In this document: positions 7,559 to 62,504 of the stretch, one piece after another | How positions within the stretch are numbered: position 1 is the first letter of the stretch | Layout: the number at the start of each line of letters is the position of its first letter | DNA from: a virus | DNA length: 64,000 nt | Strand: one strand, 5' to 3' | IMG/VR virus record: IMGVR_UViG_3300045988_147571 | Translations under genes and position numbers: made by a program | The notes under the pieces: generated by a model | The model's input: only the letters and a program-made list of their open reading frames with translations | Told to the model about the DNA's origin: nothing | The model's database searches: none

Positions 7559-7591
7559 ATTGCCTAAAAATATTTAAAGGAGGAAATAAAA

Positions 7592-8065: not shown

Positions 8066-8083
8066 TGGAAGGAGGAATACATA

Positions 8084-10404: not shown

Positions 10405-10414
10405 AAAACTACTT

Positions 10415-10440
10415 AAAGAGGTGGGGGCTTCCACCTCTTT
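10415..10440 (+). terminator. intrinsic terminator after the capsid gene
   Basis: 10-bp GC-rich stem AAAGAGGTGG/CCACCTCTTT with a 6-nt loop. Confidence 0.65.
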
Positions 10441-10464
10441 AATTGATTAAAAAGGAGTAATAAT

Positions 10465-11004: not shown

Positions 11005-11014
11005 GAGGTATCAT

Positions 11015-20771: not shown

Positions 20772-20777
20772 AAACTA

Positions 20778-21331: not shown

Positions 21332-21340
21332 CACAGTTTG

Positions 21341-39887: not shown

Positions 39888-42800
39888 ATGTCGTTTAAAG
39901 ATGCTAAGAAACTTGCTGCAGCTAACTCAGCAAACACGACTTTGATGACCGCTGAGTTGGCCGCAGTCACCATTGATGATGATTATACGTTATGTACTGA
40001 TGGACGCTATGAAGTATATAACAAATATAGCGATGATAATTTTTCATCAGTGGACAATTTAAAAAATATAACCGTTGACTCTTCACAGATCAATATCATG
40101 CAGGAAGAAAACAGTCAGTATATGCCATTCAGAATTCCAAGATACTGGGATGGAATGGATCTTATGGATATGTTGATTCAGGTAAGATATCAGTCTGTGG
40201 CTCAGAGCAAAGGTCAGATTGCAAATGTGATCAATGTTGCATCAAGTTCTACTCATATTACTTTTGGATGGCTAATTGATGCAAATGTTACTGCTTCTGC
40301 AGGTGATATTATATTTGAAATCACAGCAACTGGCTTAAATGAAAAAGGAAAAAACTATATTTGGAGAACCAGACCAAATGGTAAGTTTACTGTTCTGGAA
40401 GGTCTGAATTATGATGGCATCATTGAACCATCTGATGATTGGTATACAAGCTTTGTCAATATGGTCTTAGGACATGTAGCCGAAGCAAAACAGTATGCAG
40501 ATGAAGCCAAAGCTTCTGCCGCTTCTATTAATGTAGATGATATTAAGGCAGATGTAACTTCTTCTGTTACAAAAAATCTAAATCAGACCGTAGCTGAGTC
40601 TCTGAAAGATTATTATACAAAAACAGAAATTGATCAGACTGTAAATGAATTAAATACTGCTATCTCCAGTATTGACAGTCTGAAAAACTTAAAAGTTGAA
40701 TATGATAATACAACTGGACATCTCGTATTTAAAGATAAAGAGGAACAGATTGGCGAAATTACAATCAACAGTCTTTCCAATCTTGTCGTTGAATATTCTG
40801 TAGTCAATGGCAAAGGTTCACTCGTGTTTAAGAATGGAGAAACAGAGATCCAGACTGTAGAACTTAGTTCTATTGAACCGTCTGCCGCATGGACTTCTGC
40901 TCTTAAAGAGGACATTTCTAAGAGTACAGATGAAAAGCTCTCTCCTGTTGTAGATCGTGTGTCTGCTCTTGAGACTGCAAAAGATGATCTGGCAGGCAAA
41001 GTTGAAACAAATACAACTGATATTTCAGGTCTGAAAACAGATGTAGCTGGATTAAAAGAATCTAACGAAACAATTTCTGCTACTACTACAGAAACCAAAA
41101 ATACGGTAGATATTCTGAAGCAGAATGTTTCTGGTTATGATTCTCAGTTTGAATCCATCAATAGTGACATTACTGCGATCAATGAATCTATTAAGGATTT
41201 AGGTAAAAATACAGGTCATGAGTATGACGTTTCTTATGAAGAAAATGTTTTTACTCTGTATGAAGATGATGTAATTAAGAAACAGTTTACAATCACTGGT
41301 GGCTCTGGACCATCTGACACTACTACGGTCACAATCGAGAGAATTACAAGTTCTGATGCGATCTTCTTAGCAGGAAACTCTGCAGTGATCGAATATAACT
41401 TTACCTCTGTAGATAATACAGGAGATACAACCGGTAATGGTACTGCTACATGGCGTGTCGGAAGTACAACAGTTGCTACTACTGTAGCTGCTCAGGGTAA
41501 GAATAGTTTTGATATTACACAATATCTGAAAAATGGTGCAAACTCTATTAGACTTTCTATCACTGATAGTTTTGGTACAATCGCTACTAAGACTTGGACC
41601 ATTACAATTGTTGACTTTAAAATTGAGAGTATTTTTGATGATACACTCTTCTATTCAGACGAGGTAACATTTAGATATACTCCATATGGTGATATTAATA
41701 AGACTGTACATTTTGTTCTTGATGAAAAAGAAATTGCAGGAGTTGAAACAACTGCTTCTGGTAGACAGATGACTTATACTTTGGCAAAACAGAGTCATGG
41801 TGCTCACCTTCTGAAAGTGTATATGACTGCAAGTATCAATAATCAGGACGTAACTTCTGAGTCAGTATATAAAGATATTATCTGGGTTGAACAAGGAAAT
41901 ACTACTCCTATTATTGGATGTTCTATGGTTGAATTTACTGCAAAACAGTACAATACAACAAGCATCAAATATGTTGTATATGATCCAGAACATAATCCTG
42001 CTACTGTAAAACTCTTTGTTGATGGCAAAGTTGCTTCTACTCTTACTGTTGGAAGAACTGCTCAGATCTGGAGCTACAAGTCTACCGAAATAGGCAAACA
42101 GTCTCTTACTATCAGTTGCCGTAGAATCACAAAGATTCTTACTGCTACTATTGAGAAACTGGATATCAATGTATCTCCGGTAACTACAAACCTTGCATTT
42201 GACTTTAATCCATCTGGTAAAAACAATGGTGAAGCTGACTGGCTGAAGATCAATGATAATCTTACAATTGAAGTGTCAGATAACTTTGATACAACAAATG
42301 GTGGTTATCAGGTCGATGAAGATGGAGATACTTATTTCTGCGTAAAAGCAGGAACTGCTGCTACTATCCCATATCAGTTATTTGCTGATGATGCAAAGAA
42401 AACTGGCAAGAACTTTAAATTCATTTATAAATGTACAAATGTAAAGAACTATGAAGCTCAAGTACTCTCCTGTTTTGCAGATAATCTTGGTTATACTGTA
42501 AAAGCTCAGGAAGCAACACTGAAATCTGAACAGAACGAAATCTCTGTCCCATATTGTGAAGATTACTATATGGAGCTGGAATTTAATATTCTGCCGGACA
42601 GTGAATATACAGAAATGGTTATGTGGGTTGATGGCATTCCTACAAGAGTAAAACTGTATGCCACTTCTGATAGTTTCACGCAGACAAATCCTGTAGGTAT
42701 TACAATCGGTTCTGATGACTGCGACGTTATTGTATACAGAATAAAAGCTTATACAATGAACCTCACTGATGATGAGATTCTGGATAACTTCATTGCTGAT

Positions 42801-45800
42801 GCAAAAAATGCAAATGAAATTATCAACCGATACAACCGCAATGATATTCTTGATTCTTCTGGTGGACTTGATCCTGATGTACTGGCCGAAAAATGTCCAG
42901 ACTTGAGAATCATTAAACTGGAAGTACCAGTATTTACAACTGGTAAGAAAAATAAAGTACCATTTACATCTGTACAGCAGATCTATAAGAATGGTCGTCC
43001 TGTTGATAACTGGATCTCTCGTGATGGTATTCATAATGGACAGGGAACCTCTTCTGAATATTATGGTGATTCTGGTCGAAATCTGGAACTTAACTGTAAG
43101 AATGGATTTACATTCGCAAATGATACAACTGCCGATGTTTATTCTATGGATGAAAATGCTATTGGAATCAACTATTTCAATGTCAAAGTAAATATTGCTT
43201 CTTCTGAGAATATCAATAATGCAGGTCTTCAAGGAGAATATCAGGAATTCAACCCATATATCCGTCCTGCTAGAAAGAAAGATCCTCGTGTACGTGATAC
43301 TATGCAGTTCTATCCTTGTGTTGTATTCTTAAAAGAAACAGATGTAGATAATGCTGTAGAGTTCAAAGACGGTCAGTGGCACTTCTATGCTGCAGGTGAT
43401 ATTGGTAACAGTAAGAAGAATACAGTTGCACAGGGAATGGATCCAGAGAATCACAAAGAATTCATTGTTGAAGTGTCAAATAATACTGATCCTCAGTGCC
43501 GTTTCTTATCTGATGACTTATCAAATGAAGAATGGGGTGGAGATACTTCATTCGAAATGAGATATCAGAATCCAAATTGTACAAAAGAAGAAATTCAGGC
43601 TGGCAGACAGGCTTGGAACGATCTTTTGACTTGGGTTGTAAATGCTGATTCTGAAACATTTGTAAAAGAGTTTGAACAGCACTTTATTAAAGACTCATTA
43701 CTCTTCTATTACTTATTTACCGAAAGACATACTATGGTAGATAACAGAGCAAAAAATACTTTCTGGCATACAGAAGATTTGGTTCACTGGGATTTATGTA
43801 TGGATTATGATAACGATACTGCAATGGGTAATGATAATGAAGGTGGATTAACTCTTACTTACGGATATGAAGATACTGATACTATTGGAACAAAATCAGT
43901 CTTTAATGCATCTGATAGTAAAGTGTTCTGTTATATCAGAGATTACATGTTTGATGATCTGCAGAGTATGTTCCTTCAGATGGAGGCCAAACTTACATGG
44001 TCTGCAAACCGTATCTTAAATAAATTCGAAACTCTTCAGAATTATAAACCGGAACGTCTCTGGATCGCTGATATGAGAAGAAAGTATTTCAGACCTTACG
44101 AGGATAAAGGTACGACTTCTTATCTGGAAATGATGAACGGAAGCAAGAAACAGCAGAGACGACAGTTCCAGAAATATCAAGAGAAATATATTGCATCTAA
44201 ATATGTAGGTTCTACTACTACCTCAGATGTAATCACAATCCGTGGTTACACTCCAACAAACTGGACTGGTGTAAAACCGGATGGTACATTCCATATTGTT
44301 CCTTATGCTGATTCTTATGTTGATGTAAGATTTGGTTCTAACCTTGTTCGTCAAAGAGCTAAGAGAGGTCAGACTTATACAGTCAAATCTCCTATTGCTG
44401 CTATGAACGATACAGAGGTCTATGTATATAATGCATCTTTGATGCAATCCATTGGTGATATTGCGCCATTCTATCCGGGATATACAAATTTCAATCAGGG
44501 TGTAAAAATGACAGACATTCTTATTGGTTCTGATGTTGAAGGATATCAGAATACAAATATGAATGATTTCTCAATCGGACAGAATGTTCTTCTGGAACGA
44601 CTGAATCTTGAGAATCTGCCAAACCTGAAAAAGACAATCGACCTTTCTAACTGTAAAAATCTCGAAGAGTTTCTAGCAGAAGGATCTGGTATTACAGGTG
44701 TTATCTTTGCTCCTGGCGGAAAGATTGAAACTGCTCATCTTCCTGCCATCGCATCTCTTACCGGAAAGAACCTGTATAGATTGACCGATCTTACTATAAC
44801 AAGTTATGCAAATCTTACTACTCTGTCTCTTGATAACTGCAATACTTTGGATGCAAAAGACATTATCAATAAAGCTACTGGATTAACCAGAGTTCGTGTA
44901 ACTGGCATCAATTGGGAACTGGACGATACTACTCTGCTTGACAGATTAGCAAAAATGACTGGTATTGATGATAACGGATATAACTCTGTACATTCTGTTC
45001 TTATAGGAACTGTACACATTCCTGTTATGAGACAGCAAAGACTGGATGAATTCGCTGAATTATGGCCAGATTTAGAGATTACCTACGATTCAATTATCAC
45101 TCAGTTCAAAGTAACATTTGTCAACGACGATGAAGAAAATACAGTTCTTGATATCCAGTACGTTGATAAAGGTGCAAATGCAGTTGATCCTATTACAAGA
45201 GAAATTGATCCGATTCCTACTCCTACCAAAGAAAGCACAATCAAACTTGATTATACATTCAAAGGCTGGAATGGATCTCTAACTGGAATCTTCGCTGACA
45301 GAACTATCAAAGCTGTATACAATAGCAAAGTGCGTGAATATACAGTAAAATATGTTTCTAAAGGATTAACTCTACAGGAGTCTACTGGACAGTATGGTTC
45401 TTATATTAAGTATGAAGGTGACACTCCTACTTATACTGCTGAGGAATCTGCTTATAAATATAATCTATTCAAAGGTTGGGACAAATCTGGATTCGTTGAT
45501 GGTGAGAAAACTATCAATGCTGTGTATGAAACCTGCGAATATGTAGATGGATACTTTGACGGAAAAGATCTGTCAAATATGACTCAGGTTGAGCTTTATA
45601 CTCTTATGAAAATGGGACTTGAAACAAAAGCTCTGTCTCTTAAAGATACATTAGATTTTAAGCTTGGTGTTGATTATTCCTATGGAGATATTGAAGAACA
45701 TGAAGTAATCTCTGCTTCTACTAAGTTTGATGGAACAAATTATATTGACACTGGACTGAAAATCATGGAGAAAGATAGAGACTTTACTGTTGCTATTGAC

Positions 45801-46778
45801 TTTGAATTTGATGCAGGAAATAATGTCAATGCTACTCTTGCTCAGTGCTTCCAAAGCGATGGTTCTAATGGATTCAGACTGTGGTATTCTCAAGAACCTA
45901 GATTTTCATGGAATACTGATAGTGTATCTCCTTCTGCTGGAACAAACAGAGAAATCGTAGTATTCCGTCATGAAGCTGGAAGTCAGAAGCTTTATGTGTA
46001 CAATTCAAACATGACTGGGAAAGAAGTATCTTCTACTACTCTGAATGCGATCAGGATTCCAGAGCATAGTTCCACTCTCGTATTTGGATGTTCTAAAGCT
46101 GACGACGGAGCATATGAAAACTTTGCAAAAGGCACTGTACATTGGGCTAAGGTTTGGTATGCGGATCTTGGTGAAGAACAATGTATGGATATTGCTTCTT
46201 GGATTCATGAAATTATTCCAATGGAAGTGGCTAAGTTTAAAGGATATTATCTGTCTGACGTTGCTTCAAAGAGAGCTAACATTACATTTGTTGCTTCTAA
46301 TCTACTTGGTACAGAAAAACCTTATAATAATAAGAGCACAAATGCAGGTGGATGGGCTGATTCTACATTGAATACTTGGCTGAATACCAGACTGCTTAAA
46401 GCGATCTCTCCTTTATGGAAAGCATTGATTAAACCAGTCAAAGTATACTCTTCTATCGGTAATAAATCCAATGACACATCTGTATCTAACTGTAGATTCT
46501 ATATTCCGTCTTTATATGAAGTTGATCCTACATCTGCTTCTGAACCATATATCTCTGAAACAAATGCTCCTATTGTTTATTTCACAGATGATGATACCAG
46601 AAAGAAAGCAAAATCTTCTGCTCCTACGGAGTATAAATCTTACTGGACCAGATCTCCGAATGCTACAGTTGCAAATTGGTTATATACAGTCAATGAAGCC
46701 GGTGGAACATATGGATTCTCTTATCCAGGACAGAATTCTGGAATCTTACTTATGTTCTCAATTTCAAGTGAGGGGTAA
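39888..46778 (+). CDS. giant multidomain baseplate / receptor-binding protein (2296 aa)
   Basis: Segments by eye: coiled-coil stalk; CotH-like segment (FYYLFTERHTMVDNRAKNTFWH..HWDLCMDYDNDTAMG, tentative); leucine-rich repeats (LERLNLENLPNLKKTIDLSNCKNLEEF..); two Listeria-Bacteroides-type repeats (YTFKGWNG.., YNLFKGWDKSG..); LamG-like region; DUF6273-like C-terminus (..GGWADSTLNTWLN..FYIPSLYEV..YWTRSP). Confidence 0.6.
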   Translation: MSFKDAKKLAAANSANTTLMTAELAAVTIDDDYTLCTDGRYEVYNKYSDDNFSSVDNLKNITVDSSQINIMQEENSQYMPFRIPRYWDGMDLMDMLIQVRYQSVAQSKGQIANVINVASSSTHITFGWLIDANVTASAGDIIFEITATGLNEKGKNYIWRTRPNGKFTVLEGLNYDGIIEPSDDWYTSFVNMVLGHVAEAKQYADEAKASAASINVDDIKADVTSSVTKNLNQTVAESLKDYYTKTEIDQTVNELNTAISSIDSLKNLKVEYDNTTGHLVFKDKEEQIGEITINSLSNLVVEYSVVNGKGSLVFKNGETEIQTVELSSIEPSAAWTSALKEDISKSTDEKLSPVVDRVSALETAKDDLAGKVETNTTDISGLKTDVAGLKESNETISATTTETKNTVDILKQNVSGYDSQFESINSDITAINESIKDLGKNTGHEYDVSYEENVFTLYEDDVIKKQFTITGGSGPSDTTTVTIERITSSDAIFLAGNSAVIEYNFTSVDNTGDTTGNGTATWRVGSTTVATTVAAQGKNSFDITQYLKNGANSIRLSITDSFGTIATKTWTITIVDFKIESIFDDTLFYSDEVTFRYTPYGDINKTVHFVLDEKEIAGVETTASGRQMTYTLAKQSHGAHLLKVYMTASINNQDVTSESVYKDIIWVEQGNTTPIIGCSMVEFTAKQYNTTSIKYVVYDPEHNPATVKLFVDGKVASTLTVGRTAQIWSYKSTEIGKQSLTISCRRITKILTATIEKLDINVSPVTTNLAFDFNPSGKNNGEADWLKINDNLTIEVSDNFDTTNGGYQVDEDGDTYFCVKAGTAATIPYQLFADDAKKTGKNFKFIYKCTNVKNYEAQVLSCFADNLGYTVKAQEATLKSEQNEISVPYCEDYYMELEFNILPDSEYTEMVMWVDGIPTRVKLYATSDSFTQTNPVGITIGSDDCDVIVYRIKAYTMNLTDDEILDNFIADAKNANEIINRYNRNDILDSSGGLDPDVLAEKCPDLRIIKLEVPVFTTGKKNKVPFTSVQQIYKNGRPVDNWISRDGIHNGQGTSSEYYGDSGRNLELNCKNGFTFANDTTADVYSMDENAIGINYFNVKVNIASSENINNAGLQGEYQEFNPYIRPARKKDPRVRDTMQFYPCVVFLKETDVDNAVEFKDGQWHFYAAGDIGNSKKNTVAQGMDPENHKEFIVEVSNNTDPQCRFLSDDLSNEEWGGDTSFEMRYQNPNCTKEEIQAGRQAWNDLLTWVVNADSETFVKEFEQHFIKDSLLFYYLFTERHTMVDNRAKNTFWHTEDLVHWDLCMDYDNDTAMGNDNEGGLTLTYGYEDTDTIGTKSVFNASDSKVFCYIRDYMFDDLQSMFLQMEAKLTWSANRILNKFETLQNYKPERLWIADMRRKYFRPYEDKGTTSYLEMMNGSKKQQRRQFQKYQEKYIASKYVGSTTTSDVITIRGYTPTNWTGVKPDGTFHIVPYADSYVDVRFGSNLVRQRAKRGQTYTVKSPIAAMNDTEVYVYNASLMQSIGDIAPFYPGYTNFNQGVKMTDILIGSDVEGYQNTNMNDFSIGQNVLLERLNLENLPNLKKTIDLSNCKNLEEFLAEGSGITGVIFAPGGKIETAHLPAIASLTGKNLYRLTDLTITSYANLTTLSLDNCNTLDAKDIINKATGLTRVRVTGINWELDDTTLLDRLAKMTGIDDNGYNSVHSVLIGTVHIPVMRQQRLDEFAELWPDLEITYDSIITQFKVTFVNDDEENTVLDIQYVDKGANAVDPITREIDPIPTPTKESTIKLDYTFKGWNGSLTGIFADRTIKAVYNSKVREYTVKYVSKGLTLQESTGQYGSYIKYEGDTPTYTAEESAYKYNLFKGWDKSGFVDGEKTINAVYETCEYVDGYFDGKDLSNMTQVELYTLMKMGLETKALSLKDTLDFKLGVDYSYGDIEEHEVISASTKFDGTNYIDTGLKIMEKDRDFTVAIDFEFDAGNNVNATLAQCFQSDGSNGFRLWYSQEPRFSWNTDSVSPSAGTNREIVVFRHEAGSQKLYVYNSNMTGKEVSSTTLNAIRIPEHSSTLVFGCSKADDGAYENFAKGTVHWAKVWYADLGEEQCMDIASWIHEIIPMEVAKFKGYYLSDVASKRANITFVASNLLGTEKPYNNKSTNAGGWADSTLNTWLNTRLLKAISPLWKALIKPVKVYSSIGNKSNDTSVSNCRFYIPSLYEVDPTSASEPYISETNAPIVYFTDDDTRKKAKSSAPTEYKSYWTRSPNATVANWLYTVNEAGGTYGFSYPGQNSGILLMFSISSEG

Positions 46779-52658: not shown

Positions 52659-53201
52659 ATGGCAATTTACAAAGGTGAACAATGTCTTGCCGGAGTTGGT
52701 AAGAATGCAACTATTAAAATCGGTACTGCTAAAACAGGTACTTCAGCTGCAGTAACCAATTCTGGTACAGATACAGATGCAATATTAAATTTTACACTGC
52801 CCAAAGGTGATCAGGGAGTTGGAATTTCAAGTGTTATCCCTCATTATCTTGCAAGTCCTAAATCACAGGGAGTAACCAGATCAACTACTGGATGGGCGAC
52901 TTCCGCTCAGGTTATGACATCTACAAACAAATATTTGTGGTGCTATCATGAATTTGTTTTGACAAACAATAATCATTTGTACACTACTCCAACAGTTATA
53001 GGTGTTTATGGAGATAAAGGTGATCCGGGTACAACTGATTATAATGGATTACAGAATAAACCGGTCGTTAATGGAGCTGTAACTGCTTATCAGTCAGATA
53101 TTATGAAATCTCAGTTAAGAAATGTGACATTCTCTACTGAAGAACCTAAGACATCTGATGGTAAGCCTGGTGATATGTGGGTGGTGTATGTCGATGAGTA
53201 A
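52659..53201 (+). CDS. fibre adaptor-like protein
   Basis: 180 aa with GGAGG RBS. Its C-terminus KPGDMWVVYVDE parallels KNGDIWIVYDS of 55918..56196. Confidence 0.5.
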   Translation: MAIYKGEQCLAGVGKNATIKIGTAKTGTSAAVTNSGTDTDAILNFTLPKGDQGVGISSVIPHYLASPKSQGVTRSTTGWATSAQVMTSTNKYLWCYHEFVLTNNNHLYTTPTVIGVYGDKGDPGTTDYNGLQNKPVVNGAVTAYQSDIMKSQLRNVTFSTEEPKTSDGKPGDMWVVYVDE

Positions 53202-55902
53202 TATTAAAACTGGTGATATTTTAAACTTTGGTTATACTGGTGCTGTTCAGAGTGTAACATTGCCTAAAGGAACATATAAATTGGAGTGTTGGGGCGCTCA
53301 GGGTGGAAATAGCAATCAATCAAACGGAACTTATGGTAATGGTGGAAAAGGTGGATATTCTACTGGTATTTTAAATGTTTCAACTAATACCACTATATAT
53401 ATAACAGTAGGAGGGCAAGGTCAAAATGGTGCCCTTAATACTAGAACTGCTGGTGGTTTTAACGGTGGTGGTGATGGTTATGGTACTAACAACTCTGGCG
53501 TAGGTGGCGGAGGTGGTGGAGCTTCTGATATTTCTTTAATGCATCCTGTATTTTCACAGTCATCTTATTTTATAAATAAAATTCGAGATACAAACTCACT
53601 ATTAAGTAGAATTATCGTAGCAGGTGGCGGAGGATCTGCAGGATATGATGTTAGTAATAATGCAGCTAATGGTGGTGCTGGCGGAGGTACTACAGGACAA
53701 GATGGATTATCAAACCGCGTTTATCATGGCACTGGCGGAAAACAAACTACTTTTGGTACAGGAGGATCATCAGAGGAATCTAATAGGTATTCCGTCCAAG
53801 CTAAATTCGGATGTGGAGCATCAGCCAGTAATTCTACAGATGTAGCGCCTGGTGGAGGCGGTGGCTGGTATGGAGGTGGATTACATTGTGATTCTGCTGG
53901 TGGCGGTTCTGGTTATGTCTACACCTCTTCTACAGCCTCTAATTACCCATCAGGTTGTTTATTAAACTCTTCTTATTACTTAACCGATGCCAAAACCATA
54001 GCAGGCAATAATTCTTTTGTTTCTCCCACAGGTTCATCTGAAACCGGACACTCAGGCAATGGATATTGTCGAATTACTGTTATTAAATGTAAGAGTACTG
54101 CGCTATATACCAGAATAAATAATTCAATGAAAAAGGCTATTGCTTTTTATTTTAAATTAAATAATAACAAAATGTACGGTGTTGGTTCTGCTAATTTTAA
54201 TGGTACTGTTATGAATTTTGATTATACTGGTTCAGTTCAAACTGCTACATTGGCTCCTGGAACATATAAGTTAGAATGCTGGGGTGCTCAAGGCGGGAAT
54301 TGCTATTGGAGTAGCGTGGAACGCCCTGGAAGTTTAGGCGGGTATAGTTCGGGCATTTTAAAAATCACTTCTAAAACAAATTTATTTTGTTACGTTGGTG
54401 GCGCCGGTGAAAGACGGACAATTGTTTCGATGGGTGGTGGTGGCTTCAATGGTGGAGGTCATGCATATAGTTATACATCTTCTAATCCGTCAGGAGCTGG
54501 TGGAGGAGGTTCAGATATAAGGATTGGAACCGATTCTCTATATTCAAGAGTTATCGTAGCAGGTGGAGGAGGCGGAGCAGGATATGATAATTCTGGAAAT
54601 TATGGGTATGGTGGAGGAACAGTTGGGGGCACTCAAACTGTTAACAGTAATTCCGAACGACAGGCAAATGGTGGTTCTCAAACTAACGGTGGTATAAATA
54701 AATCTGGATATACTACTTCAGGAGCTTTTGGTGTCGGAGGAAATGGAACTCAACAATGGACTTCCGGCGGCGGTGGCGGCTGGTATGGAGGAGCTGGTTG
54801 TTACTGTGATTATGCTGGCGGAGGTTCAGGTTATGTATATACTTCATCTACAGCTAAAAACTATCCATCTGGATGTTTGTTAAACTCTTCTTACTATCTC
54901 ACTAATGCTTCTACTATTGCTGGCAACAAATCATTCCCTTCTCCTACAGGTTCTACAGAAACAGGACACTCAGGTAACGGCTATGTAAGAATCACTAAAT
55001 TAACAGATGTAATATATCTCACTCATGCTAATAACGACATAATGAATTTTGATTACACAGGTTCCACACAATCTAAAACTCTAAAACCAGGTACATATAC
55101 AATAGAATGCTGGGGTGGCCAAGGAGGAAGTTATAGTAGTTACATAGGCGGATACGGTGGTTATTCCAAAGGCACAATTACTCTTACTAAGGTGACTACT
55201 GTTTATGTGTCTGTTGGCGGAGCTGGATCTTCCTCTTCTACTACTGCAGGATTCAATGGTGGAGGAGCTGGTATTTCTTCTGGTAGAGGTGGCGGCGGCG
55301 CCACAGATGTTCGTATAGGTCAAAATTCTCTATATTCAAGAGTTATCGTGGCTGGGGGCGGAGGAGGCGCTGGAGTTACAGGTGCTAATGTTAATCCTTG
55401 TGGTTGTGGCGGTGGAGAATATGGTGGAGATGGCTATAATAATAATACCACTGGTTCCTATACTACTGGTCAAAACAGATCTGGTGGTAGCGCTTCTCAA
55501 ACTGCAGGTGGAATAACTTGGAATACAGGCGCTCAGGCTACTTTTGGTCAAGGCGGAAATGCTTCTGGCTACTCTTGTGGAGGAGGTGGTGGCGGCTGGT
55601 ACGGTGGAGGCGGTGCATATGATAGTGACTCTGACTCTGATGGACGTTGGGGTGGAGGTGGATCTGGATATGTTTATACCTCTTCTACAGCTAAAAATTA
55701 TCCTAACGGATGCCTACTCAATTCCACTTATTATTTAACGAATGCTCAAACAATAGCCGGAAACACTTCTTTCACTTCTCCTACAGGATCAGCAGAAACT
55801 GGACATACAGGTAACGGATTCTGCAGAATTACAAATTTGAACCCAACACAATATGGATTATACGTAAAAACTAACTCAGGTTGGAAACACATAGATTTAT
55901 AA
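53194..55902 (+). CDS. glycine-rich-domain protein (three tandem domains)
   Basis: Three copies of about 270-300 aa, each running from NF(G/D)YTG..Q..TL.PGTYKLECWGAQGG through GGFNGGG, GGGG(A)SD(I/V)R, VIVAGGGG and GGGGGWYGG to SGYVYTSSTA.NYPSGCLLNS.YYLT.A.TIAGN.SF.SPTGS.ETGH.GNG(Y/F)(C/V)RIT. ATG 53194 overlaps the upstream stop (ATGAGTAA). The ORF-track start is 53158. Confidence 0.7.
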   Translation: MSNIKTGDILNFGYTGAVQSVTLPKGTYKLECWGAQGGNSNQSNGTYGNGGKGGYSTGILNVSTNTTIYITVGGQGQNGALNTRTAGGFNGGGDGYGTNNSGVGGGGGGASDISLMHPVFSQSSYFINKIRDTNSLLSRIIVAGGGGSAGYDVSNNAANGGAGGGTTGQDGLSNRVYHGTGGKQTTFGTGGSSEESNRYSVQAKFGCGASASNSTDVAPGGGGGWYGGGLHCDSAGGGSGYVYTSSTASNYPSGCLLNSSYYLTDAKTIAGNNSFVSPTGSSETGHSGNGYCRITVIKCKSTALYTRINNSMKKAIAFYFKLNNNKMYGVGSANFNGTVMNFDYTGSVQTATLAPGTYKLECWGAQGGNCYWSSVERPGSLGGYSSGILKITSKTNLFCYVGGAGERRTIVSMGGGGFNGGGHAYSYTSSNPSGAGGGGSDIRIGTDSLYSRVIVAGGGGGAGYDNSGNYGYGGGTVGGTQTVNSNSERQANGGSQTNGGINKSGYTTSGAFGVGGNGTQQWTSGGGGGWYGGAGCYCDYAGGGSGYVYTSSTAKNYPSGCLLNSSYYLTNASTIAGNKSFPSPTGSTETGHSGNGYVRITKLTDVIYLTHANNDIMNFDYTGSTQSKTLKPGTYTIECWGGQGGSYSSYIGGYGGYSKGTITLTKVTTVYVSVGGAGSSSSTTAGFNGGGAGISSGRGGGGATDVRIGQNSLYSRVIVAGGGGGAGVTGANVNPCGCGGGEYGGDGYNNNTTGSYTTGQNRSGGSASQTAGGITWNTGAQATFGQGGNASGYSCGGGGGGWYGGGGAYDSDSDSDGRWGGGGSGYVYTSSTAKNYPNGCLLNSTYYLTNAQTIAGNTSFTSPTGSAETGHTGNGFCRITNLNPTQYGLYVKTNSGWKHIDL

Positions 55903-55917: not shown

Positions 55918-56196
55918 ATGCCAATTATATTTCATGGAACAGGTAGTGGCGGCTCTGCTAAAAAACTAAAAACCGCACGAACTATTAATGGTACGAATTT
56001 TGATGGTACAGCTAATATTACTACTTCTAGTTGGGGAACAACAAGAACCGTTACTGTAGGAAATACAAGTAAATCTGTAAATGGTTCTGGAAATGTAAGT
56101 TGGTCTATGGATGAAATAGGTATTCATGTGTCTAGTTCTGAGCCTACTGCTTCTCAGGGAAAGAATGGTGATATTTGGATTGTTTATGATAGTTAA
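55918..56196 (+). CDS. fibre adaptor-like protein
   Basis: 92 aa with GGAGG RBS. Carries the fibre motif KLKTARTINGTNFDGTANIT and the C-terminus KNGDIWIVYDS. Confidence 0.5.
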   Translation: MPIIFHGTGSGGSAKKLKTARTINGTNFDGTANITTSSWGTTRTVTVGNTSKSVNGSGNVSWSMDEIGIHVSSSEPTASQGKNGDIWIVYDS

Positions 56197-56207
56197 AAAT
56201 AGAAAGG

Positions 56208-58616
56208 ATGGTGAGAGTTATGGCTTGTAGTTCTGGATGCGGTACAAGTTGCTCTACGAATTGTTCTACTACTTCGTCTGGAAACTGCGGTGGATGTGGT
56301 ACTGCGTGTTCTACAAGTTGCCAAACCACTGCTAGTGGTCAAAGTTGTAGTGGATGTGGAACATTGTGCTCAAGTAGTTGTGGTGATAGTTGTCATGGCA
56401 CCTGTAGCGGTAGTTGCGTCGGTACTTGTAGTGATACCTGCACCGCTGGTTGTAACACTACTTGTTATTATACTTGCACCGGCACTTGTGATAGCACTTG
56501 TTCTGCAAGTTGCGCAAATGATTGTTCCGGTACTTGCTCAGGAGGCTGTCAAGGTTGTACTGCTTCATGTCAAAATGATTGTTCTGGTTGTTCTGGTTGC
56601 GGAGGATCTTGTTCACACAGCTGTTCAGGCGATTGCGAAGGCGGCTGTTACGGATCATGCAATACTACTTGTACCGCTGATTGTCAAAATGACTGTAGCT
56701 CTGGATGTAATGATGGATGTAAAGATTCTTGCAAAAACACTTGTAAAGATACATGTACCGGTACATGCGTAGGCGGATGCGGTGCTTCTTGTGATAATAC
56801 CTGTAACACTGGATGTGAAAACTCTTGTAGCTCTAATTGCACATCATTATGTAGCATAGCTGGTACTTATGGTGAATCAGAAACCAATATATTAAACTTT
56901 GATTACACTGGTGCTGTTCAGAGTGTAACATTGAAACCCGGGAGATATGTGCTTGAATGTTGGGGTGCTCAAGGTGGTAATGGATGTACGGGAAATTCAT
57001 ATAAAGGCGGTGCCGGAGGATATTCCAAAGGTACTCTCACACTAGCCAAAACAGAAACTTTATACATATATGTTGGTGGACAAGGAGTTAGCGCTGCAGC
57101 TTCTGGCAATGGAAATATTCGAGAAGGTGGATTCAACGGTGGTGGATCTGGACGTGATTGGGGTAGTACTGGTCATGGCGGTGGCGGAGGTGGTGGCGCC
57201 TCTGATATTCGAATTATAACTGATAGCTTCTATGCTCGTGTTATAGTCGCCGGCGCTGGTGGTGGAGCTTCTGATAATGGAGCAGGCGGTGCTGGCGGCG
57301 GCACTTCTGGGATTTCATCATCCTCTTCCGCTGGAACAGCAACTGGAGGCAGCGGTTTTGGTCAAGCGGCGGCATCAAGTTGCACTTCCTATGAATGTGG
57401 TGGCGGTGGCGGTGGCTGGTATGGCGGCTATGGCGGATCTTCAGAAAACTATCCTGGCGGTGGTGGATCAGGTTACGTATATACATCTTCTTCTGCTTCT
57501 AACTACCCTTCTGGGTGTCTCTTAAATTCTTCATACTATCTCACCGATGCTCAAACCATTGCAGGAAATCAAACTTTTAAATCACCTACCAATACAAATG
57601 AAACGGGTCATTATGGTAATGGCTATTGTCGAATTACATGTTATGTTCCTAAGAAATCATATTTCTGCAAAGTGGGTAATACTATAAAACAATCTCCTGT
57701 TGTAATTGCAAAAGCAAATAATAAATTATTCGACACAGGAGCCGCAGTAATGAATCTTAGTTATACAGGAACTTCTCAAAATGTAGTCCTTCCAGCAGGT
57801 ACGTATAAATTTGAATGCTGGGGAGCACAGGGAGGTTATAGATCATCTTCTACTTATGGCGGTAAAGGTGGTTACTCCGTCGGAACTATTACGCTTACAC
57901 AAACAACTAATCTATTTGTATATGTTGGAGGTTCAGGTAACTCTGCTACTGCTTATACTAATGGTATATATGCTGGTGGATTTAACGGCGGTGGTTATAG
58001 ATATGGATATAAAGGTGGCGGTGGTGCTACTGATATTCGTATTGGTAAAGATGATCTTTATGCAAGAATAATTGTTGCAGGCGGTGGAGGTTCTGATGGT
58101 GCTAGTAATAAAACAGGTATGTATGGTGGAGGACTCGAAGGTGGAACTACTACTGAAAGTTGTGGTTCTGGTGGATATGGAGGAACACAAACAGGAAATA
58201 CGTGGCTAACTACTACTCGAACCACTTCTGCTACATCTACTTCTAACTGTTATGCTGGATTTGGATTCGGCGGAAATGGATGTTATAGTTCTTCTGGCTA
58301 TGCAGGTGCTGGCGGTGGAGGCTGGTATGGAGGTTCCGGTTCATATCCAGATGGCTCTGGCGATGATGACAGAGGAGGAGGCGGCGGCTCAGGTTATGTT
58401 TACACTGCAAAAACTGCTGCAAATTATCCTTCTGGAAATTACGTCAACTCTTCTTATTATCTCACTGACGCTTCCACTGTCGCAGGAAATCAATCATTTA
58501 CTGCTCCAGATGGATCAACTGAAACTGGTCATTCCGGTGATGGATTTTGTCGTATTACAAGGCTCAAAAATGCGACAGTATATGTAAAACAAAATAATGT
58601 ATGGATCAAGAGCTAA
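56208..58616 (+). CDS. CXXX-repeat / glycine-rich-domain fusion protein (virion fibre-like)
   Basis: The N-terminal ~215 aa are Cys-tetrad repeats. Two glycine-rich domains of the type in 53194..55902 follow. ATG 56220 is better spaced from AAAGGA/GGTGAG than the ORF-track ATG 56208. Confidence 0.7.
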   Translation: MVRVMACSSGCGTSCSTNCSTTSSGNCGGCGTACSTSCQTTASGQSCSGCGTLCSSSCGDSCHGTCSGSCVGTCSDTCTAGCNTTCYYTCTGTCDSTCSASCANDCSGTCSGGCQGCTASCQNDCSGCSGCGGSCSHSCSGDCEGGCYGSCNTTCTADCQNDCSSGCNDGCKDSCKNTCKDTCTGTCVGGCGASCDNTCNTGCENSCSSNCTSLCSIAGTYGESETNILNFDYTGAVQSVTLKPGRYVLECWGAQGGNGCTGNSYKGGAGGYSKGTLTLAKTETLYIYVGGQGVSAAASGNGNIREGGFNGGGSGRDWGSTGHGGGGGGGASDIRIITDSFYARVIVAGAGGGASDNGAGGAGGGTSGISSSSSAGTATGGSGFGQAAASSCTSYECGGGGGGWYGGYGGSSENYPGGGGSGYVYTSSSASNYPSGCLLNSSYYLTDAQTIAGNQTFKSPTNTNETGHYGNGYCRITCYVPKKSYFCKVGNTIKQSPVVIAKANNKLFDTGAAVMNLSYTGTSQNVVLPAGTYKFECWGAQGGYRSSSTYGGKGGYSVGTITLTQTTNLFVYVGGSGNSATAYTNGIYAGGFNGGGYRYGYKGGGGATDIRIGKDDLYARIIVAGGGGSDGASNKTGMYGGGLEGGTTTESCGSGGYGGTQTGNTWLTTTRTTSATSTSNCYAGFGFGGNGCYSSSGYAGAGGGGWYGGSGSYPDGSGDDDRGGGGGSGYVYTAKTAANYPSGNYVNSSYYLTDASTVAGNQSFTAPDGSTETGHSGDGFCRITRLKNATVYVKQNNVWIKS
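56226..56852 (+). repeat. coding tandem repeat: (C-x3)n, 52 Cys in about 209 codons
   Basis: Hand count gives 52 Cys, with 44 of 51 Cys-Cys spacings exactly CxxxC. The other residues are almost all G/S/T/N/D/A. Confidence 0.9.
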
Positions 58617-58635
58617 GGAAACTTAGCTCTTATTT
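58608..58635 (+). terminator. intrinsic terminator
   Basis: 10-bp stem AAGAGCTAAG/CTTAGCTCTT with loop GAAA. Overlaps the stop codon. Confidence 0.55.
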
Positions 58636-58654
58636 AAATTAAGGAGGATTTTCT

Positions 58655-59026
58655 ATGAAACTTATTTTAAAAGACAATACTGAAATTACAGTAACTCGTA
58701 TGAACAATACTTATGCATACGAAAATTTCGTAGATGGTATGGGTTATGACATGAATAAAAATATTTCTGCAAGTTTTACTATTTTCGACTCCGATAAAAG
58801 CTTTGAAGAATTAAAAACTATTTTATCAGGAGAAAATAGAGAAGGATTTAGACTTGCTTATGGCGTAACAGAAAAAGATTTCCCAGGAATGAAAATCGAA
58901 TCTATTTCTGAGGATATTGCCAATGATAGAAGTATTATCACAATTTCTATGAATGGAACTAAAGTAGAAGAAAAAACAGAGAACTCAGCTACAGATGCTG
59001 AAAAAGATACAAATAAAGAAGTTTAA
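58655..59026 (+). CDS. hypothetical protein (first gene of the maturase unit)
   Basis: 123-aa ORF with AAGGAGG RBS. No motif recognised. Confidence 0.5.
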   Translation: MKLILKDNTEITVTRMNNTYAYENFVDGMGYDMNKNISASFTIFDSDKSFEELKTILSGENREGFRLAYGVTEKDFPGMKIESISEDIANDRSIITISMNGTKVEEKTENSATDAEKDTNKEV

Positions 59027-59060
59027 TTAGTCAACAAAGGATAGAAAGGAATAAACAGAT

Positions 59061-59390
59061 ATGAGAAGAATTATTGTAAAAATTGATCGTGACAAAGCAG
59101 TTGAACTTGAAAGAGTTAACTTTGAATTAAGTTTTACAAAGGATGTTATACAAAGACTTATTGAGTCCCATCCGAATGATACAGAGCTTATTAATGGAGA
59201 AGTATTCCAGAAATATAATCGTCAGGGCGCAGAACTTCAGGCTAAATACTCTCTCCTTGCTGCCGAAATTGAAAGAGAATATATCCCTGAGAAATTAAAA
59301 GGTCATAAGTATACATGGAATATTCCTAATGGTACAAATGACTTTATAATTGATATTCAGTGTAATTGTGAAATCGAGGGAATTGAATGA
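59061..59390 (+). CDS. candidate CXXX-repeat modification system accessory protein
   Basis: 109-aa helical ORF whose stop overlaps the radical SAM start (ATGA). The call rests on context only. Confidence 0.4.
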   Translation: MRRIIVKIDRDKAVELERVNFELSFTKDVIQRLIESHPNDTELINGEVFQKYNRQGAELQAKYSLLAAEIEREYIPEKLKGHKYTWNIPNGTNDFIIDIQCNCEIEGIE

Positions 59391-60721
59391 GAAAACATGA
59401 ACAATATTCTGATCAGATAGCTAGGTTGTATCCGCCAGAGAAGCCTGAGACCGATGACGGACAACGAATTTTAACTCAAAGCGTTACTTTTCAAGTAACT
59501 GATGATTGCAATCTCGCATGCAAATATTGTTATCAAACCTGCAGAAATAAGCGTTCGATGTCATTTGAAACTGCAAAGAAATTTGCTGATTTAATTATTT
59601 CAGGAGATAAAGGCTTTTCTAAGTATATCAACCCAGAGAAATCTCCAGGATTAGTTGTGGATTTTATTGGAGGAGAACCTTTTCTTGAAATAGAATTGAT
59701 TGACCAGATTTGCACATATATCATGGATCGATTGATAGAACTTGATCATCCATGGGCCATGAAAACTAAATTTTCTATATGTTCTAATGGTACTCTTTAT
59801 AGAGAACCTAAAGTGCAGGATTTCTTACGTAAATGGGCCAATAGATTATCTTTTTCAGTCACTATAGATGGTAACAAGGAATTACATGATTCTTGTAGAG
59901 TATTCCCTGATGGAAGTCCAAGTTATGATCTTGCAGTTGATGCAGCTACAGACTGGATGAAAAAAGGTTATTATATGGGAAGTAAGATTACTATAGCTCC
60001 TGGCAATATAAGTTATCTTTATGATGCAATAGTTCATATGACAGAACTTGGCTATAATGAAATTAATGCTAACTGTGTATTTGAAGAGGGATGGACTACT
60101 ATGCATGCTACTGTTCTTTATGATCAAATGAAACGTATATCTGATTATTTCTTAGAAAAAGATTATGATTTCGAACATGACTTTTTCTGCTCTTTATATA
60201 ATGATGATTTCTTTAAACCAAAAGATGTGGCAGAGATTCAAAATTGGTGCGGTGGGACAGGTTCCGCTATGATTTCATGTGATCCTGATGGACATATTTT
60301 TCCTTGCATCAGATATATGGAATCTTCTCTTAATGGACAACAAGAACCTTATTCTATTGGAGATGTAGATAATGGGATAGGCTACTGTGATTGTTATAAA
60401 TGCAGACTTAATTGCCTTAATTCTATTGATCGTAGAACTCAGAGTACAGATGAGTGCTTCTACTGCCCTATTGCAGAAGGCTGTGCATGGTGTTCAGCTT
60501 ACAACTATCAAGTATTTGGAACTCCGGATAAAAGAGCGACATTTATCTGTGTTATGCACAAAGCTCGTGCTTTAGGTAATTATTACTTCTGGAATAAATA
60601 TTATAGAAAACATGATCTGAAAAAACGTATGGAGATTTTTGTGCCTGATGAATGGGCACTTGAGATTATCTCTGAATCAGAACTTAATATGTTGAAAGAA
60701 TTGGAAAGAGAGGACGATTAG
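59387..60721 (+). CDS. radical SAM / SPASM-domain maturase
   Basis: CNLACKYC (CxxxCxxC), GGEPF, and C-terminal auxiliary-cluster motifs WCGGTGS..CDPDGHIFPC and CFYCPIAEGCAWC. 444 aa. Confidence 0.85.
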   Translation: MRKHEQYSDQIARLYPPEKPETDDGQRILTQSVTFQVTDDCNLACKYCYQTCRNKRSMSFETAKKFADLIISGDKGFSKYINPEKSPGLVVDFIGGEPFLEIELIDQICTYIMDRLIELDHPWAMKTKFSICSNGTLYREPKVQDFLRKWANRLSFSVTIDGNKELHDSCRVFPDGSPSYDLAVDAATDWMKKGYYMGSKITIAPGNISYLYDAIVHMTELGYNEINANCVFEEGWTTMHATVLYDQMKRISDYFLEKDYDFEHDFFCSLYNDDFFKPKDVAEIQNWCGGTGSAMISCDPDGHIFPCIRYMESSLNGQQEPYSIGDVDNGIGYCDCYKCRLNCLNSIDRRTQSTDECFYCPIAEGCAWCSAYNYQVFGTPDKRATFICVMHKARALGNYYFWNKYYRKHDLKKRMEIFVPDEWALEIISESELNMLKELEREDD

Positions 60722-60735
60722 TCCTCTCTCTTTTT
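60707..60735 (+). terminator. intrinsic terminator
   Basis: 9-bp stem AGAGAGGAC/GTCCTCTCT with a 5-nt loop, followed by CTTTTT. Overlaps the stop codon. Confidence 0.6.
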
Positions 60736-60821
60736 AATATCCATAGTCTATATTTACATTTCTATTTTAAGAACAATCAGTTCTTATCTTTAATTCACAT
60801 CTACGAAGGAGGCTTGATATT

Positions 60822-62504
60822 ATGACAGAAATCAAAGGTATTGATGTTTCCCGTTGGAACGGAACAATTGATTGGAAAACTGTTGCTAATTATGGCATGG
60901 GCTTTGCTATCCTAAGAATCACAGAAAAAGGAAATATTGTTGATAGCACATTCGAACCAAACTACAAAGGCTGCATTGAGAATAAGATTCCTGTTGGAGT
61001 CTATAAATACAGCTATGCTACTACTATTGCTCAGATTGAAGATGAAGCAAATGTAGTTATTAAAACATTGAATAAAAGAAAACTGGATTATCCAGTATTT
61101 CTTGATATAGAGGATAAATGTCAGGAGAATTTATCTGACAGTTTAATGATGAAAATGATTGAAACGTTTAGAGCTATTATTGTCAAAGCTGGATATAAAT
61201 TTGGTATTTATTGCGGTTATTCTTGGTATCAGAACCAGTTACCAGAGGGCGCGAAAAAGTACGATTGCTGGGTTGCTCGATATCCTAATAATGATACCGG
61301 TGAATTACAGGAAAGATTAAGAGTTCCTGCTTCTACTGGTGTTATTGGATGGCAATATTCTAGTAAGGCAACCATTCCTGGAATGCCAACAAAAACCGAT
61401 CGAAGTGTATTCTATAAAGACTATTCTAAATCTTCTACTACTTCTACAAACTCTCCCAAACCAACAACTACACAAGGAAGTGATGCTATGAACAAAGAAA
61501 AGGCTATTGATGCTCTTATTGCTTGCGCTGAAAATGAGGTTGGATATTTAGAAAAGAAATCTAACTCTCAGCTTGATGATAAGACTGCAAATGCGGGTTA
61601 TAATAACTATACTAAGTACTGGAGAGACGTATATCCAGAATATCAGGGACAGGCATGGTGTGCTGCATTTGTGAGCTGGTGTATGATGAAAACATTCGGT
61701 CTTGAGACAGCTAAAAAGCTCCTTAAACATTGGCCTTATGTATATTGTCCTACTCTTGGAAATCTCTTTACAAAGTATGCAAATCCACAGCGAGGAGATA
61801 TTGTAATCTTCTATCGTAATGGCACATTTACACATACAGGATTAGTTACTAAAGTTGAAGGGGATAAGTTCTACACAATTGAAGGTAATACCTCAGGAGG
61901 ATCTTCTATCGTTCCAAATGGTGGTGGAGTTTATGCAAAATCTTATTATAATTCAAATCTTCCAGGCACTAAATTCTGTCGTCCAGACTATTCTATTGTC
62001 AAATCTATCCTGACATCTAATGCCTCTTCTACACCATCTCCTGCACCCGTACAGCCATCTTATACAGCATGGGTAGGTTCTTGTACAACTAATGGAACAG
62101 ACGTGTTCTCAGACGCTACAGGAGCATCTAAACTAAATATATATCCCAAACTTAATGCAGGTAATCTTGTAGACATCATCGGTGAATCTGGCACAAGATA
62201 TCAGGTTCGTATTGCTGCAAAATATGTTGGTTATGTAGAGAAATCTAACATTAAAAATCCTGCTGCAACAACTACAAAGAAATATCCATTTGTAGGAAAA
62301 GTAACGGCAAATAAATTGAATGTTCGTAAGAAAGCTGGTACTGAACATCCATTACTTCCAGAGTATCCGCAGCTAAATAAAGACAATCTTATTAATGTCC
62401 TTGGAGTTACAAAAGATACTAAAGGTGACAGATGGTATAAAGTATCAATCACAAAAAAAGAATACATCGGCTATGTGTCAGCCAAGTATATTACTAAAGC
62501 ATAA
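60822..62504 (+). CDS. endolysin: GH25 muramidase + CHAP + SH3b-like repeats
   Basis: The N-terminus GIDVSRWNGTIDWKTV..FAILRI is typical of GH25. A Ser/Thr/Pro linker follows. CHAP motifs are GQAWCAAFVSWC and FTHTGLV..EGNT. Two C-terminal SH3b-like segments. AAGGAGG RBS. Confidence 0.8.
   Translation: MTEIKGIDVSRWNGTIDWKTVANYGMGFAILRITEKGNIVDSTFEPNYKGCIENKIPVGVYKYSYATTIAQIEDEANVVIKTLNKRKLDYPVFLDIEDKCQENLSDSLMMKMIETFRAIIVKAGYKFGIYCGYSWYQNQLPEGAKKYDCWVARYPNNDTGELQERLRVPASTGVIGWQYSSKATIPGMPTKTDRSVFYKDYSKSSTTSTNSPKPTTTQGSDAMNKEKAIDALIACAENEVGYLEKKSNSQLDDKTANAGYNNYTKYWRDVYPEYQGQAWCAAFVSWCMMKTFGLETAKKLLKHWPYVYCPTLGNLFTKYANPQRGDIVIFYRNGTFTHTGLVTKVEGDKFYTIEGNTSGGSSIVPNGGGVYAKSYYNSNLPGTKFCRPDYSIVKSILTSNASSTPSPAPVQPSYTAWVGSCTTNGTDVFSDATGASKLNIYPKLNAGNLVDIIGESGTRYQVRIAAKYVGYVEKSNIKNPAATTTKKYPFVGKVTANKLNVRKKAGTEHPLLPEYPQLNKDNLINVLGVTKDTKGDRWYKVSITKKEYIGYVSAKYITKA

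Follow-up and report, generated by a model that had tools for sequence, protein, structure and literature searches.

A 64,000-nucleotide stretch of viral DNA (IMG/VR virus record IMGVR_UViG_3300045988_147571, analysed over its whole length and henceforth called the window) carries at positions 56,208 to 60,721 a gene cassette in which a cysteine-repeat protein is paired with a radical S-adenosylmethionine (SAM) enzyme of a CXXX-repeat maturase family and with a small accessory protein. Four co-directional open reading frames (ORFs) lie here on the plus strand: an 802-aa target protein (56208..58616), whose residues 7-216 form a CXXX-repeat module (56226..56855) predicted from its cysteine spacing and its match to the repeat model TIGR04114 to be the maturase substrate, and whose residues ~227-478 and ~514-797 (56886..58598) form two glycine-rich modules recognized by PF12810 and PHROG profiles; a 123-aa beta-rich protein (58655..59026); a 109-aa accessory protein (59061..59390); and a 444-aa radical SAM/SPASM maturase (59387..60721), which overlaps the 109-aa ORF via ATGA and has a GAGGG ribosome-binding site 8 nt upstream of its start. 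These ORFs, their ATGA coupling, the enzyme motifs and two flanking hairpins had been described in an initial annotation of the same DNA, and all were found where it had placed them. Of the two terminator-like hairpins that it saw as bounding the three genes downstream of the target, the one at the end of the maturase gene (60707..60729, plus strand) runs into a good CTTTTT tail, and the one overlapping the target stop codon (58608..58631, plus strand) combines a 10-bp stem with a weak T tract, ATTTAAAT. As AAGGAGG and the ATG at 58655 follow directly 3' of this first hairpin, read-through from the fibre gene is plausible, and the hairpin may be a weak terminator or attenuator that imposes a partial rather than a full stop on transcription.

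By profile comparison the 444-aa enzyme is a full member of TIGR04115, the "radical SAM peptide maturase, CXXX-repeat target family", with 533.3 bits against a cutoff of 350 and a match spanning the complete model (positions 1-359). The trio of NCBIfam CXXX-repeat family names given in the initial annotation does exist, and the other families that match the enzyme stay below their cutoffs: the next-best, that of PapB (NF047865), reaches 170 bits (E 6e-50) against a cutoff of 340, followed by the SCIFF maturase TIGR03974 (98 bits vs. 425), QhpD TIGR03906 (97 bits vs. 453), CcpM (95 bits vs. 500) and anSME TIGR03942 (38 bits vs. 349), while phrog_1802 scores 239 bits. The CX3CX2C motif CNLACKYC occupies residues 41-48 and GGEP residues 95-98, and the SPASM cysteines C288, C307, C357, C360, C366, C369 and C388 are invariant across maturases that are 35-58% identical. 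CteB (5wgg) is the closest PDB sequence match (E 3e-19, maturase residues 27-375). With the CX3CX2C motif at residue 41, compared with ~110 in outgroup SPASM maturases, there is no room in the enzyme for an N-terminal recognition element (RRE) domain of the kind that serves peptides that are ribosomally synthesized and then post-translationally modified (RiPPs), for which the longer N-termini of the outgroup enzymes do leave space. No other radical SAM gene is present in the window.

The same pairing of enzyme, cysteine-repeat protein and small partner recurs in many unrelated phages. A first IMG/VR scan returned 47 loci (individual loci are cited below by L numbers), with a Cys-repeat ORF on the maturase strand in every locus that had enough upstream DNA; a second scan, built on a diverse maturase alignment, gave at least 235 candidates, the best 80 of which were kept (41-99% identical) and 79 surveyed. 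A Cys-repeat ORF lies beside the maturase in 73 of these 79 viral loci and a member of the 109-aa family in 74. That synteny is kept in so many phages that have diverged from one another supports the view that enzyme and target are functionally linked. Gene order varies, with the target found before or after the enzyme. Other enzymes of the phage clade also match TIGR04115 (L048, 437 bits; L051, 420; L131, 519; L050, 467), and in L001 (301 bits) and the bacterial Margulisiibacteriota locus L110 (275 bits) the score falls under the cutoff, yet TIGR04115 is still the best match. In a rough neighbour-joining tree the phage-type maturases group together, apart from the bacterial types; they have a longer N-terminus, and an EQYxDxIARLYP-like motif is found in 58% of the viral and none of the bacterial enzymes. 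Some phage maturases (L039 6870-9221; L034-L038, L147 and L148; probably L189, L201 and L212) are interrupted within CX3CX2C, at CNLA|C...HN|CSYC, by an intein with Intein_splicing and LAGLIDADG homing endonuclease domains, giving ORFs of 783-799 aa. Another arrangement was noted in L209, a 246-kb IMG/VR contig, where, within 2039-11347, consecutive radical-SAM-like ORFs of 444, 373, 278 and 603 aa precede two large Cys-repeat proteins (551 and 421 aa).

The 802-aa target is the only Cys-repeat ORF in the window. Its residues 7-216 hold 52 cysteines, and of the 51 intervals from one Cys to the next, 44 measure exactly 4. This periodicity is far beyond chance: when these residues were shuffled 2000 times, 5.5 +/- 2.2 CxxxC matches (maximum 13) arose, against the 44 observed. 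Since TRF detects on the repeat-coding DNA three short, weak arrays and nothing more, the periodicity is a protein-level property, and recent DNA slippage can be ruled out as its origin. The identification as a CXXX target, put forward initially from the repeat pattern, is upheld by TIGR04114, the radical SAM-target repeat model, which on residues 99-231 reaches 32.7 bits (cutoff 20), spread over 5 stretches; the score drops to 9.2 bits on residues 1-231, and the full-length protein gives no match, probably owing to composition filters. TIGR04117 reaches 21 bits, under its cutoff of 50. The X positions are mostly Ser, Gly and Thr, then Asn and Asp, the same pattern as in bacterial targets. Among related phages the Cys columns are 96-100% conserved and the X positions 36-48% identical, values to be read with the tendency of aligners to favour Cys-Cys columns in periodic sequence; even allowing for this bias, the alignments indicate that Cys number and spacing are clearly maintained. 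Translation probably starts at the ATG at 56220 (MACSSGC...) rather than at 56208, as the latter lies just 2-3 nt after the GAAAGGA ribosome-binding site; with either start codon the repeats begin at residue 3-7, and there is no leader.

The remainder of the protein is of another kind. PF12810 (ALK_LTK_GRD) matches it in 2 stretches with 326 bits, its PHROG matches are phrog_1589, phrog_5811 and phrog_7388, and its glycine-rich modules are paralogous to the three modules of an upstream 914-aa protein (53158..55902, plus strand; PF12810 510 bits in 3 stretches, with PHROG matches), which is without Cys repeats. Between the two, directly 5' of the target gene, lies a 92-aa ORF resembling a tail-fibre N-terminus (55918..56196, plus strand; tail-fibre families phrog_26292, phrog_21722 and phrog_20242). 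In the L149 clade, where the maturase is 67% identical to that of the window, the Cys module has a counterpart in a 262-aa all-Cys protein that stands alone and shares 45-51% identity with it, and from this standalone counterpart the 802-aa protein can be understood as a fusion of an all-Cys module with fibre-like modules. Such glycine-rich fusions occur in the window's clade only; other forms of the target are proteins with a ~110-aa common N-terminal domain, which comprises an "E..RR" helix and a "GSSxSxC(R/N)xxCTGxC" junction and after which the repeats run on to the C-terminus, and all-Cys proteins whose repeats begin at residue ~5. The ~110-aa domain, found in many targets, matches nothing in Pfam or PHROGs. 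Most phage targets are standalone proteins of 150-550 aa, and for phage targets in general no signal peptide, twin-arginine translocation (Tat) signal, TatA/TatC, exporter or protease was found; apparent Tat flags on targets in L163, L183, L185 and L193 arose from the pattern RR.[FLIVKM] matching the "E..RR" helix and are not Tat signals. The absence of leader, protease and exporter makes the product a modified protein and not a RiPP: the "RiPP-like system" of the initial annotation is apt for the machinery, while its product falls outside the RiPP definition.

The 109-aa protein required more effort to place. It has no direct match in NCBIfam, Pfam or PHROGs, and TIGR04116 (cutoff 50 bits), the small-partner family of the bacterial CXXX systems, gives no match at E <= 10 to it or to its L048 and L131 homologues. 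A word-indexed search returned 31 unnamed metagenomic relatives, and an initial hhalign comparison with TIGR04116, based on 25 close sequences (Neff 2.5), yielded a probability of 0.8%. The provisional conclusion of no TIGR04116 homology, drawn from this shallow alignment, was overturned once an exhaustive hidden Markov model (HMM) search had enlarged the family to 266 clusters at 50% identity: aligned as a deep profile of 146 sequences against 58 TIGR04116-type ORFs, the family reaches a probability of 92.5% (P 4.8e-7) in an alignment whose 86 columns cover almost the whole of either family, with reversed or column-shuffled decoys at no more than 1.5% and an unrelated small family at 4.9%. 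Reciprocally, the TIGR04116-family HMM finds distant members of the 109-aa family with E down to 4.8e-7. The deep profile, the clean decoys and the reciprocal matches together identify the 109-aa protein as a remote TIGR04116 homologue, so that the profile check envisaged by the initial annotation fails as a direct NCBIfam match and succeeds as remote homology. Its AlphaFold2 model (predicted local distance difference test score, pLDDT, 90.6) combines a strand and a beta-hairpin with a long hairpin of two antiparallel helices; the protein, first described as helical, is thus mostly helical but also has a small three-stranded sheet. This predicted fold rules out a stand-alone PqqD-type RRE, and the sole near-significant neighbours in BFVD are uncharacterised ~90-aa proteins of uncultured gut phages.

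The 123-aa protein is a cassette companion in some clades only: its homologues adjoin the maturase in the window clade and in L043, L048, L131, L163 and L189, downstream of the enzyme in L043 and L048, and occur in 20 of the 79 viral loci. Pfam, NCBIfam and PHROGs offer no match to it, and its AlphaFold2 model (pLDDT 60) gives non-significant Foldseek matches, topped by baseplate and tail-tip proteins, on which we do not rely.

The bacterial counterparts of the cassette are families defined by genome context, namely TIGR04115, TIGR04116 and TIGR04119 with the targets TIGR04114, TIGR04117 and TIGR04118, and 80 loci from reference genomes were surveyed in addition to the 79 viral ones. Bacteroidota combine Tat-signal targets of 83-290 aa with a radical SAM enzyme, a separate TIGR04119 protein, TIGR04116 and, usually, TatC; Clostridia have short peptides of 58-100 aa, a ~720-aa fusion of radical SAM enzyme and TIGR04119, and TIGR04116, without Tat; Margulisiibacteriota have targets of 495-667 aa with up to 122 Cys, the radical SAM enzyme only and a TIGR04116-like protein, again without Tat; and phages have targets of 150-830 aa, the radical SAM enzyme only and the 109-aa family, likewise without Tat. 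TIGR04119 and canonical TIGR04116 were found in 0 of the 79 viral loci, and TIGR04119 is also absent from the 64-kb window; its absence in Margulisiibacteriota as well means that TIGR04119 may not be universal. The initial annotation had stressed that the phage target is a roughly 210-aa module of an 800-aa protein, as it is, but large protein targets are not peculiar to phages, given Margulisiibacteriota targets of up to 667 aa and 122 Cys. In the metagenome-assembled genomes concerned (Candidatus Termititenax/Margulisiibacteriota, L110-L114), these targets share their ~110-130-aa N-terminal domain with many phage targets and are accompanied by a 399-aa radical SAM enzyme and a TIGR04116-like protein, without TIGR04119, among neighbours that look flagellar by eye. 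One record deposited as "Bacteriophage sp." (L002, MT837480, 6.8 kb) holds a complete Bacteroidota-type system, with a Tat-signal Cys-repeat protein, TIGR04115 (630 bits), TIGR04119 (235 bits), TIGR04116 (105 bits), TatA and TatC, and no phage genes; it is probably a bacterial, Bacteroidota-like fragment.

In phages the cassette sits in tail modules. Wherever the neighbours in a lineage were checked, it stands next to genes for the baseplate, minor tail proteins or fibres: a BppU_N baseplate protein in L131 (a prophage beside SmpB and RNase R), baseplate wedge proteins phrog_6 and phrog_1160 in L149, the minor tail protein phrog_6211 in L051 and L205, tail fibre proteins in L160, L175 and L195, and a fibre with a PTR repeat in L048, while in L001 and L175 fibre-like genes flank it on both sides. 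The isolate Bacterium D16-76 (L107) has a cassette of the phage type, and L130 (GCA_031551385.1) is a further candidate for a prophage with one. The window itself, from a gut phage, is on its gene content a siphovirus-like structural module. PHROG and Pfam scans locate the large terminase at 1101-4166, the portal at 4178-5722, the tape measure at 17079-19640, Dit at 30075-31019 and fibre-like proteins as far as 56196, and the lysis module starts after the maturase with an endolysin carrying GH25, CHAP and SH3 domains (60822..62504, plus strand; Pfam). This gene order sets the cassette between tail fibres and lysis genes, in agreement with the late-operon position before lysis first assigned to it. 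INPHARED megablast of 56000-61000 found nothing, hence no closely related deposited phage, and a tblastn search with the glycine-rich part came back empty at 1e-10, perhaps owing to low-complexity masking. In IMG/VR, contig IMGVR_UViG_3300045988_164214 is 99% identical and is the apparent source.

Several other features of the window deserve mention. A 180-aa ORF resembling a tail-fibre N-terminus (52659-53201) precedes the 914-aa glycine-rich protein, overlapping its start by 44 nt, just as the 92-aa ORF precedes the 802-aa target, and both small ORFs terminate in GD(I/M)W(I/V)VY; they may be adaptor proteins or parts of split fibre genes. A frameshift or read-through that would join the 92-aa ORF to the target was considered and rejected, because the two lie in different frames with two intervening stops and are separate ORFs also in L039. 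The large terminase ORF is unusually long (1021 aa), with PHROG matches limited to residues ~80-470; a GIY-YIG homing endonuclease lies at 8980-9762; two minus-strand ORFs of 183 aa and 167 aa (the latter with 9 Cys) form at 20220-21281 an island in the plus-strand module that coincides with the sole window segment of negative GC skew; and three giant ORFs of 2891, 2050 and 2296 aa occupy the tail region (21338-30013, 31016-37168 and 39888-46778).

In light of these results, we consider it probable that the cassette is a phage-adapted form of CXXX-repeat radical SAM maturation, in which a tail-associated Cys-repeat protein is thioether-bridged into the stiff rod of a tail appendage. Late in infection the phage would make the tail-associated protein, with ~50 Cys-X-X-X repeats in its first ~210 residues, together with the maturase and the TIGR04116-like partner. 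The partner might help to present the unstructured repeat to the maturase, which has no RRE domain of its own, and the enzyme would then act repeatedly along the Cys module in the reducing cytoplasm of the host, using host SAM and reductants. The chemistry would most likely consist of many short-range thioethers that link Cys sulfur to carbon atoms of Ser, Thr, Gly, Asn or Asp residues close by, with Ser, Thr, Gly or Asn likelier acceptors than acidic residues; thioethers are favoured because the nearest characterised relatives of the enzyme (PapB, CteB and QhpD) form Cys thioethers. With such bridges the low-complexity stretch would become a stiff rod, resistant to reduction and proteases, that would be part of a tail fibre or baseplate appendage. 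A plausible rationale is that the cytoplasm does not allow disulfides to form and that they would soon be lost in the reducing, protease-rich gut, whereas thioethers would stiffen permanently.

Several observations weigh against this reading. The repeat substrate has no X position whose conservation would single out an acceptor, and it has 14 Asp+Glu for 52 Cys, which, with Cys at the +4 position, means that PapB-type Cys-Asp links cannot be the general modification. The glycine-rich proteins match solely PHROGs of unknown function, so that the designation as virion protein draws on the gene neighbourhood and the fusion, and most phage targets are without a recognised structural domain. Comparison of the 109-aa model with the PDB gave no significant neighbour (best E 0.45). 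The homologous bacterial targets are Tat-exported, which points to an ancestral role that was extracellular and not necessarily structural. Finally, full-text literature searches found no publication on the chemistry of the TIGR04115 family or on its phage form.

Some of these points lend themselves to other explanations. The same partners could carry out a different chemistry, such as conversion of Cys to formylglycine, dehydroalanine or a thioaldehyde, epimerisation or methylation of neighbouring residues, or help in loading metal or iron-sulfur clusters onto a metallothionein-like Cys array. We hold this to be unlikely, though worth serious attention: in the literature searches no TIGR04115 member with published chemistry came to light, the repeat offers no conserved X acceptor and too few acidic residues for PapB-type links, the second, SPASM-only protein TIGR04119 of the bacterial systems hints at multi-step chemistry, and the Tat route, by which the bacterial targets are exported, is typical of proteins that are folded or given their cofactors beforehand. 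Yet PapB, the SCIFF maturase, QhpD and CcpM all act on Cys-rich substrates, and where their chemistries have been solved these are thioethers; the seven SPASM cysteines are all conserved, as in thioether-forming enzymes, and the formylglycine-forming anSME profile gives just 38 bits against its cutoff of 349. Alternatively, the Cys-repeat protein could be modified without entering the virion, as a scaffold or chaperone of fibre assembly, a product released upon lysis, or a redox or metal buffer. The prevalence of standalone 150-550 aa targets devoid of a recognisable structural domain, the PHROG families of unknown function to which the glycine-rich proteins belong and the position of the window cassette at the boundary with lysis genes would all suit such a role, which we nonetheless judge distinctly improbable, since the window clade joins the Cys module to fibre-like modules, the cassette lies within runs of baseplate or fibre genes in about ten lineages, with fibre-like genes on both sides in L001 and L175, and the phage targets come without signal peptide, exporter or protease.

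It could also be argued that the adjacency is a coincidence or the enzyme a passively carried bacterial moron with another substrate, the Cys region being a stalk that binds metal or forms disulfides and has nothing to do with the enzyme. Most of the family is bacterial, and prophages are indeed able to acquire genes from their hosts, but the pairing persists in 73-74 of the 79 viral loci, down to 41% maturase identity and through rearranged gene order; the phage maturases stand in a clade apart, with a longer N-terminus and, in 58% of them, the EQYxDxIARLYP-like motif; TIGR04119 and Tat are consistently absent from viral loci; and the window offers no other Cys-rich candidate substrate. We therefore give this explanation almost no weight, and infer instead that the Cys-repeat protein is the substrate of the maturase and, through its tail-module setting and its fusion to fibre-like modules, a candidate component of the virion.

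If thioether maturation of a tail appendage does take place, its implications extend beyond a single phage. To our knowledge, the only covalent reinforcement described for phage particles is autocatalytic, as in the isopeptide bonds of the HK97 capsid; a SAM-consuming iron-sulfur enzyme that modifies the phage's own tail protein would represent a new principle in virion assembly and the first instance of a virion structural protein being modified post-translationally by a radical SAM enzyme. The uncharacterised bacterial CXXX-repeat family, widespread in gut Bacteroidota and Clostridia, would thereby gain a function and a chemistry, and a new reduction-proof and protease-proof protein material would come to light, suited to the reducing, protease-rich gut lumen, where disulfides fail. 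A broader proposition, that many tailed phages, mostly of gut and other anaerobic settings, use a radical SAM enzyme of their own and its small partner to install dozens of thioether rings as a ladder along the shaft of the appendage, is possible but falls short of what we would call probable. With at least 235 candidate matches and 266 partner-family clusters at 50% identity, the system nevertheless amounts to a sizeable unannotated part of gut phage biology. Being stripped down to target, small partner and one enzyme, the phage version offers the easiest route to the chemistry of the whole family, and an encoded enzyme that installs ~50 cross-links along a simple repeat would be of interest for protein materials and peptide engineering, an interest to which published work on PapB, with its far simpler substrate, already testifies.

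Among known systems, PapB with its substrate PapA (freyrasin) is the closest characterised family: a ranthipeptide maturase that forms Cys-Asp/Glu thioethers in CX3D motifs (PMC9413430, PMC10739248) and in which the substrate Cys contacts an auxiliary cluster (PMC10177961). Like the window maturase, it is a SPASM enzyme acting repeatedly on a Cys motif spaced by four residues. In the window substrate, however, the residue four positions after each Cys is another Cys and not PapB's Asp, the maturase scores below the NF047865 cutoff, and the substrate is a ~210-residue module of a large protein in place of a short peptide with six motifs; PapB's Cys-Asp chemistry as the general modification is ruled out by composition, as set out above. 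QhpD, which installs Cys-Asp/Glu thioethers in QhpC, a subunit of quinohemoprotein amine dehydrogenase, provides a precedent for SPASM cross-linking of a protein that is retained as a structural part of a larger assembly, although QhpC is a small enzyme subunit with few bridges in a non-viral system and the window maturase lies far under the QhpD cutoff. CteB, the SCIFF thioether maturase, shares with the window enzyme the radical SAM core and the two-cluster SPASM domain; the alignment starts at CteB residue 93, and the whole N-terminal region before it, an RRE-type leader-binding domain, is without counterpart in the window maturase. The likeness to the ALK/LTK glycine-rich domain is of a different order, in that PF12810, together with a weak sequence match of the glycine-rich part to the ALK extracellular region (PDB 7mzy and 7lrz, E 0.003), concerns the fused domains alone and not the modification system.

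Jumbo phages provide a more distant parallel within viruses. In Erwinia phage vB_EamM_ChrisDB (L213, KX397366; 2490-6296), two small Cys-repeat proteins, gp187 (131 aa, 20 Cys, 13 CxxxC) and gp186 (72 aa), are encoded directly upstream of the radical SAM proteins gp184 and gp183, near gp189, a "putative virion structural protein"; gp183 scores 126 bits with PapB and 114 bits with TIGR04115, both below cutoff. Similar radical SAM genes are found in 80+ records of Erwinia, Salmonella and Cronobacter jumbo phages, and a "Radical SAM superfamily protein" has been reported as common to the hairy Myoviridae jumbo phages AD1 and Y3 of Dickeya/Erwinia (PMC6143709). The Erwinia, Salmonella and Cronobacter phage enzymes are likewise phage-encoded and of the SPASM type, annotated just as "putative radical SAM superfamily protein", but they are 24-26% identical to the window maturase, come as two radical SAM genes and belong to phages of facultative-aerobe hosts. 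As a cultured phage, ChrisDB offers an experimental handle.

The closest relative of all is the bacterial TIGR04115 system, which has in common with the window the maturase family, the period-4 cysteines with Ser/Gly/Thr-rich X positions and a homologous small partner. It differs in possessing TIGR04119, separate in Bacteroidota and fused in Clostridia, which the phages lack, whereas the phage form is set apart by the absence of Tat, a partner diverged below the TIGR04116 threshold, a target placed in the tail module and a maturase clade of its own. Taken together, the cassette belongs to the CXXX-repeat radical SAM kind, known from curated HMMs only, and its phage form is a distinct variant of it.

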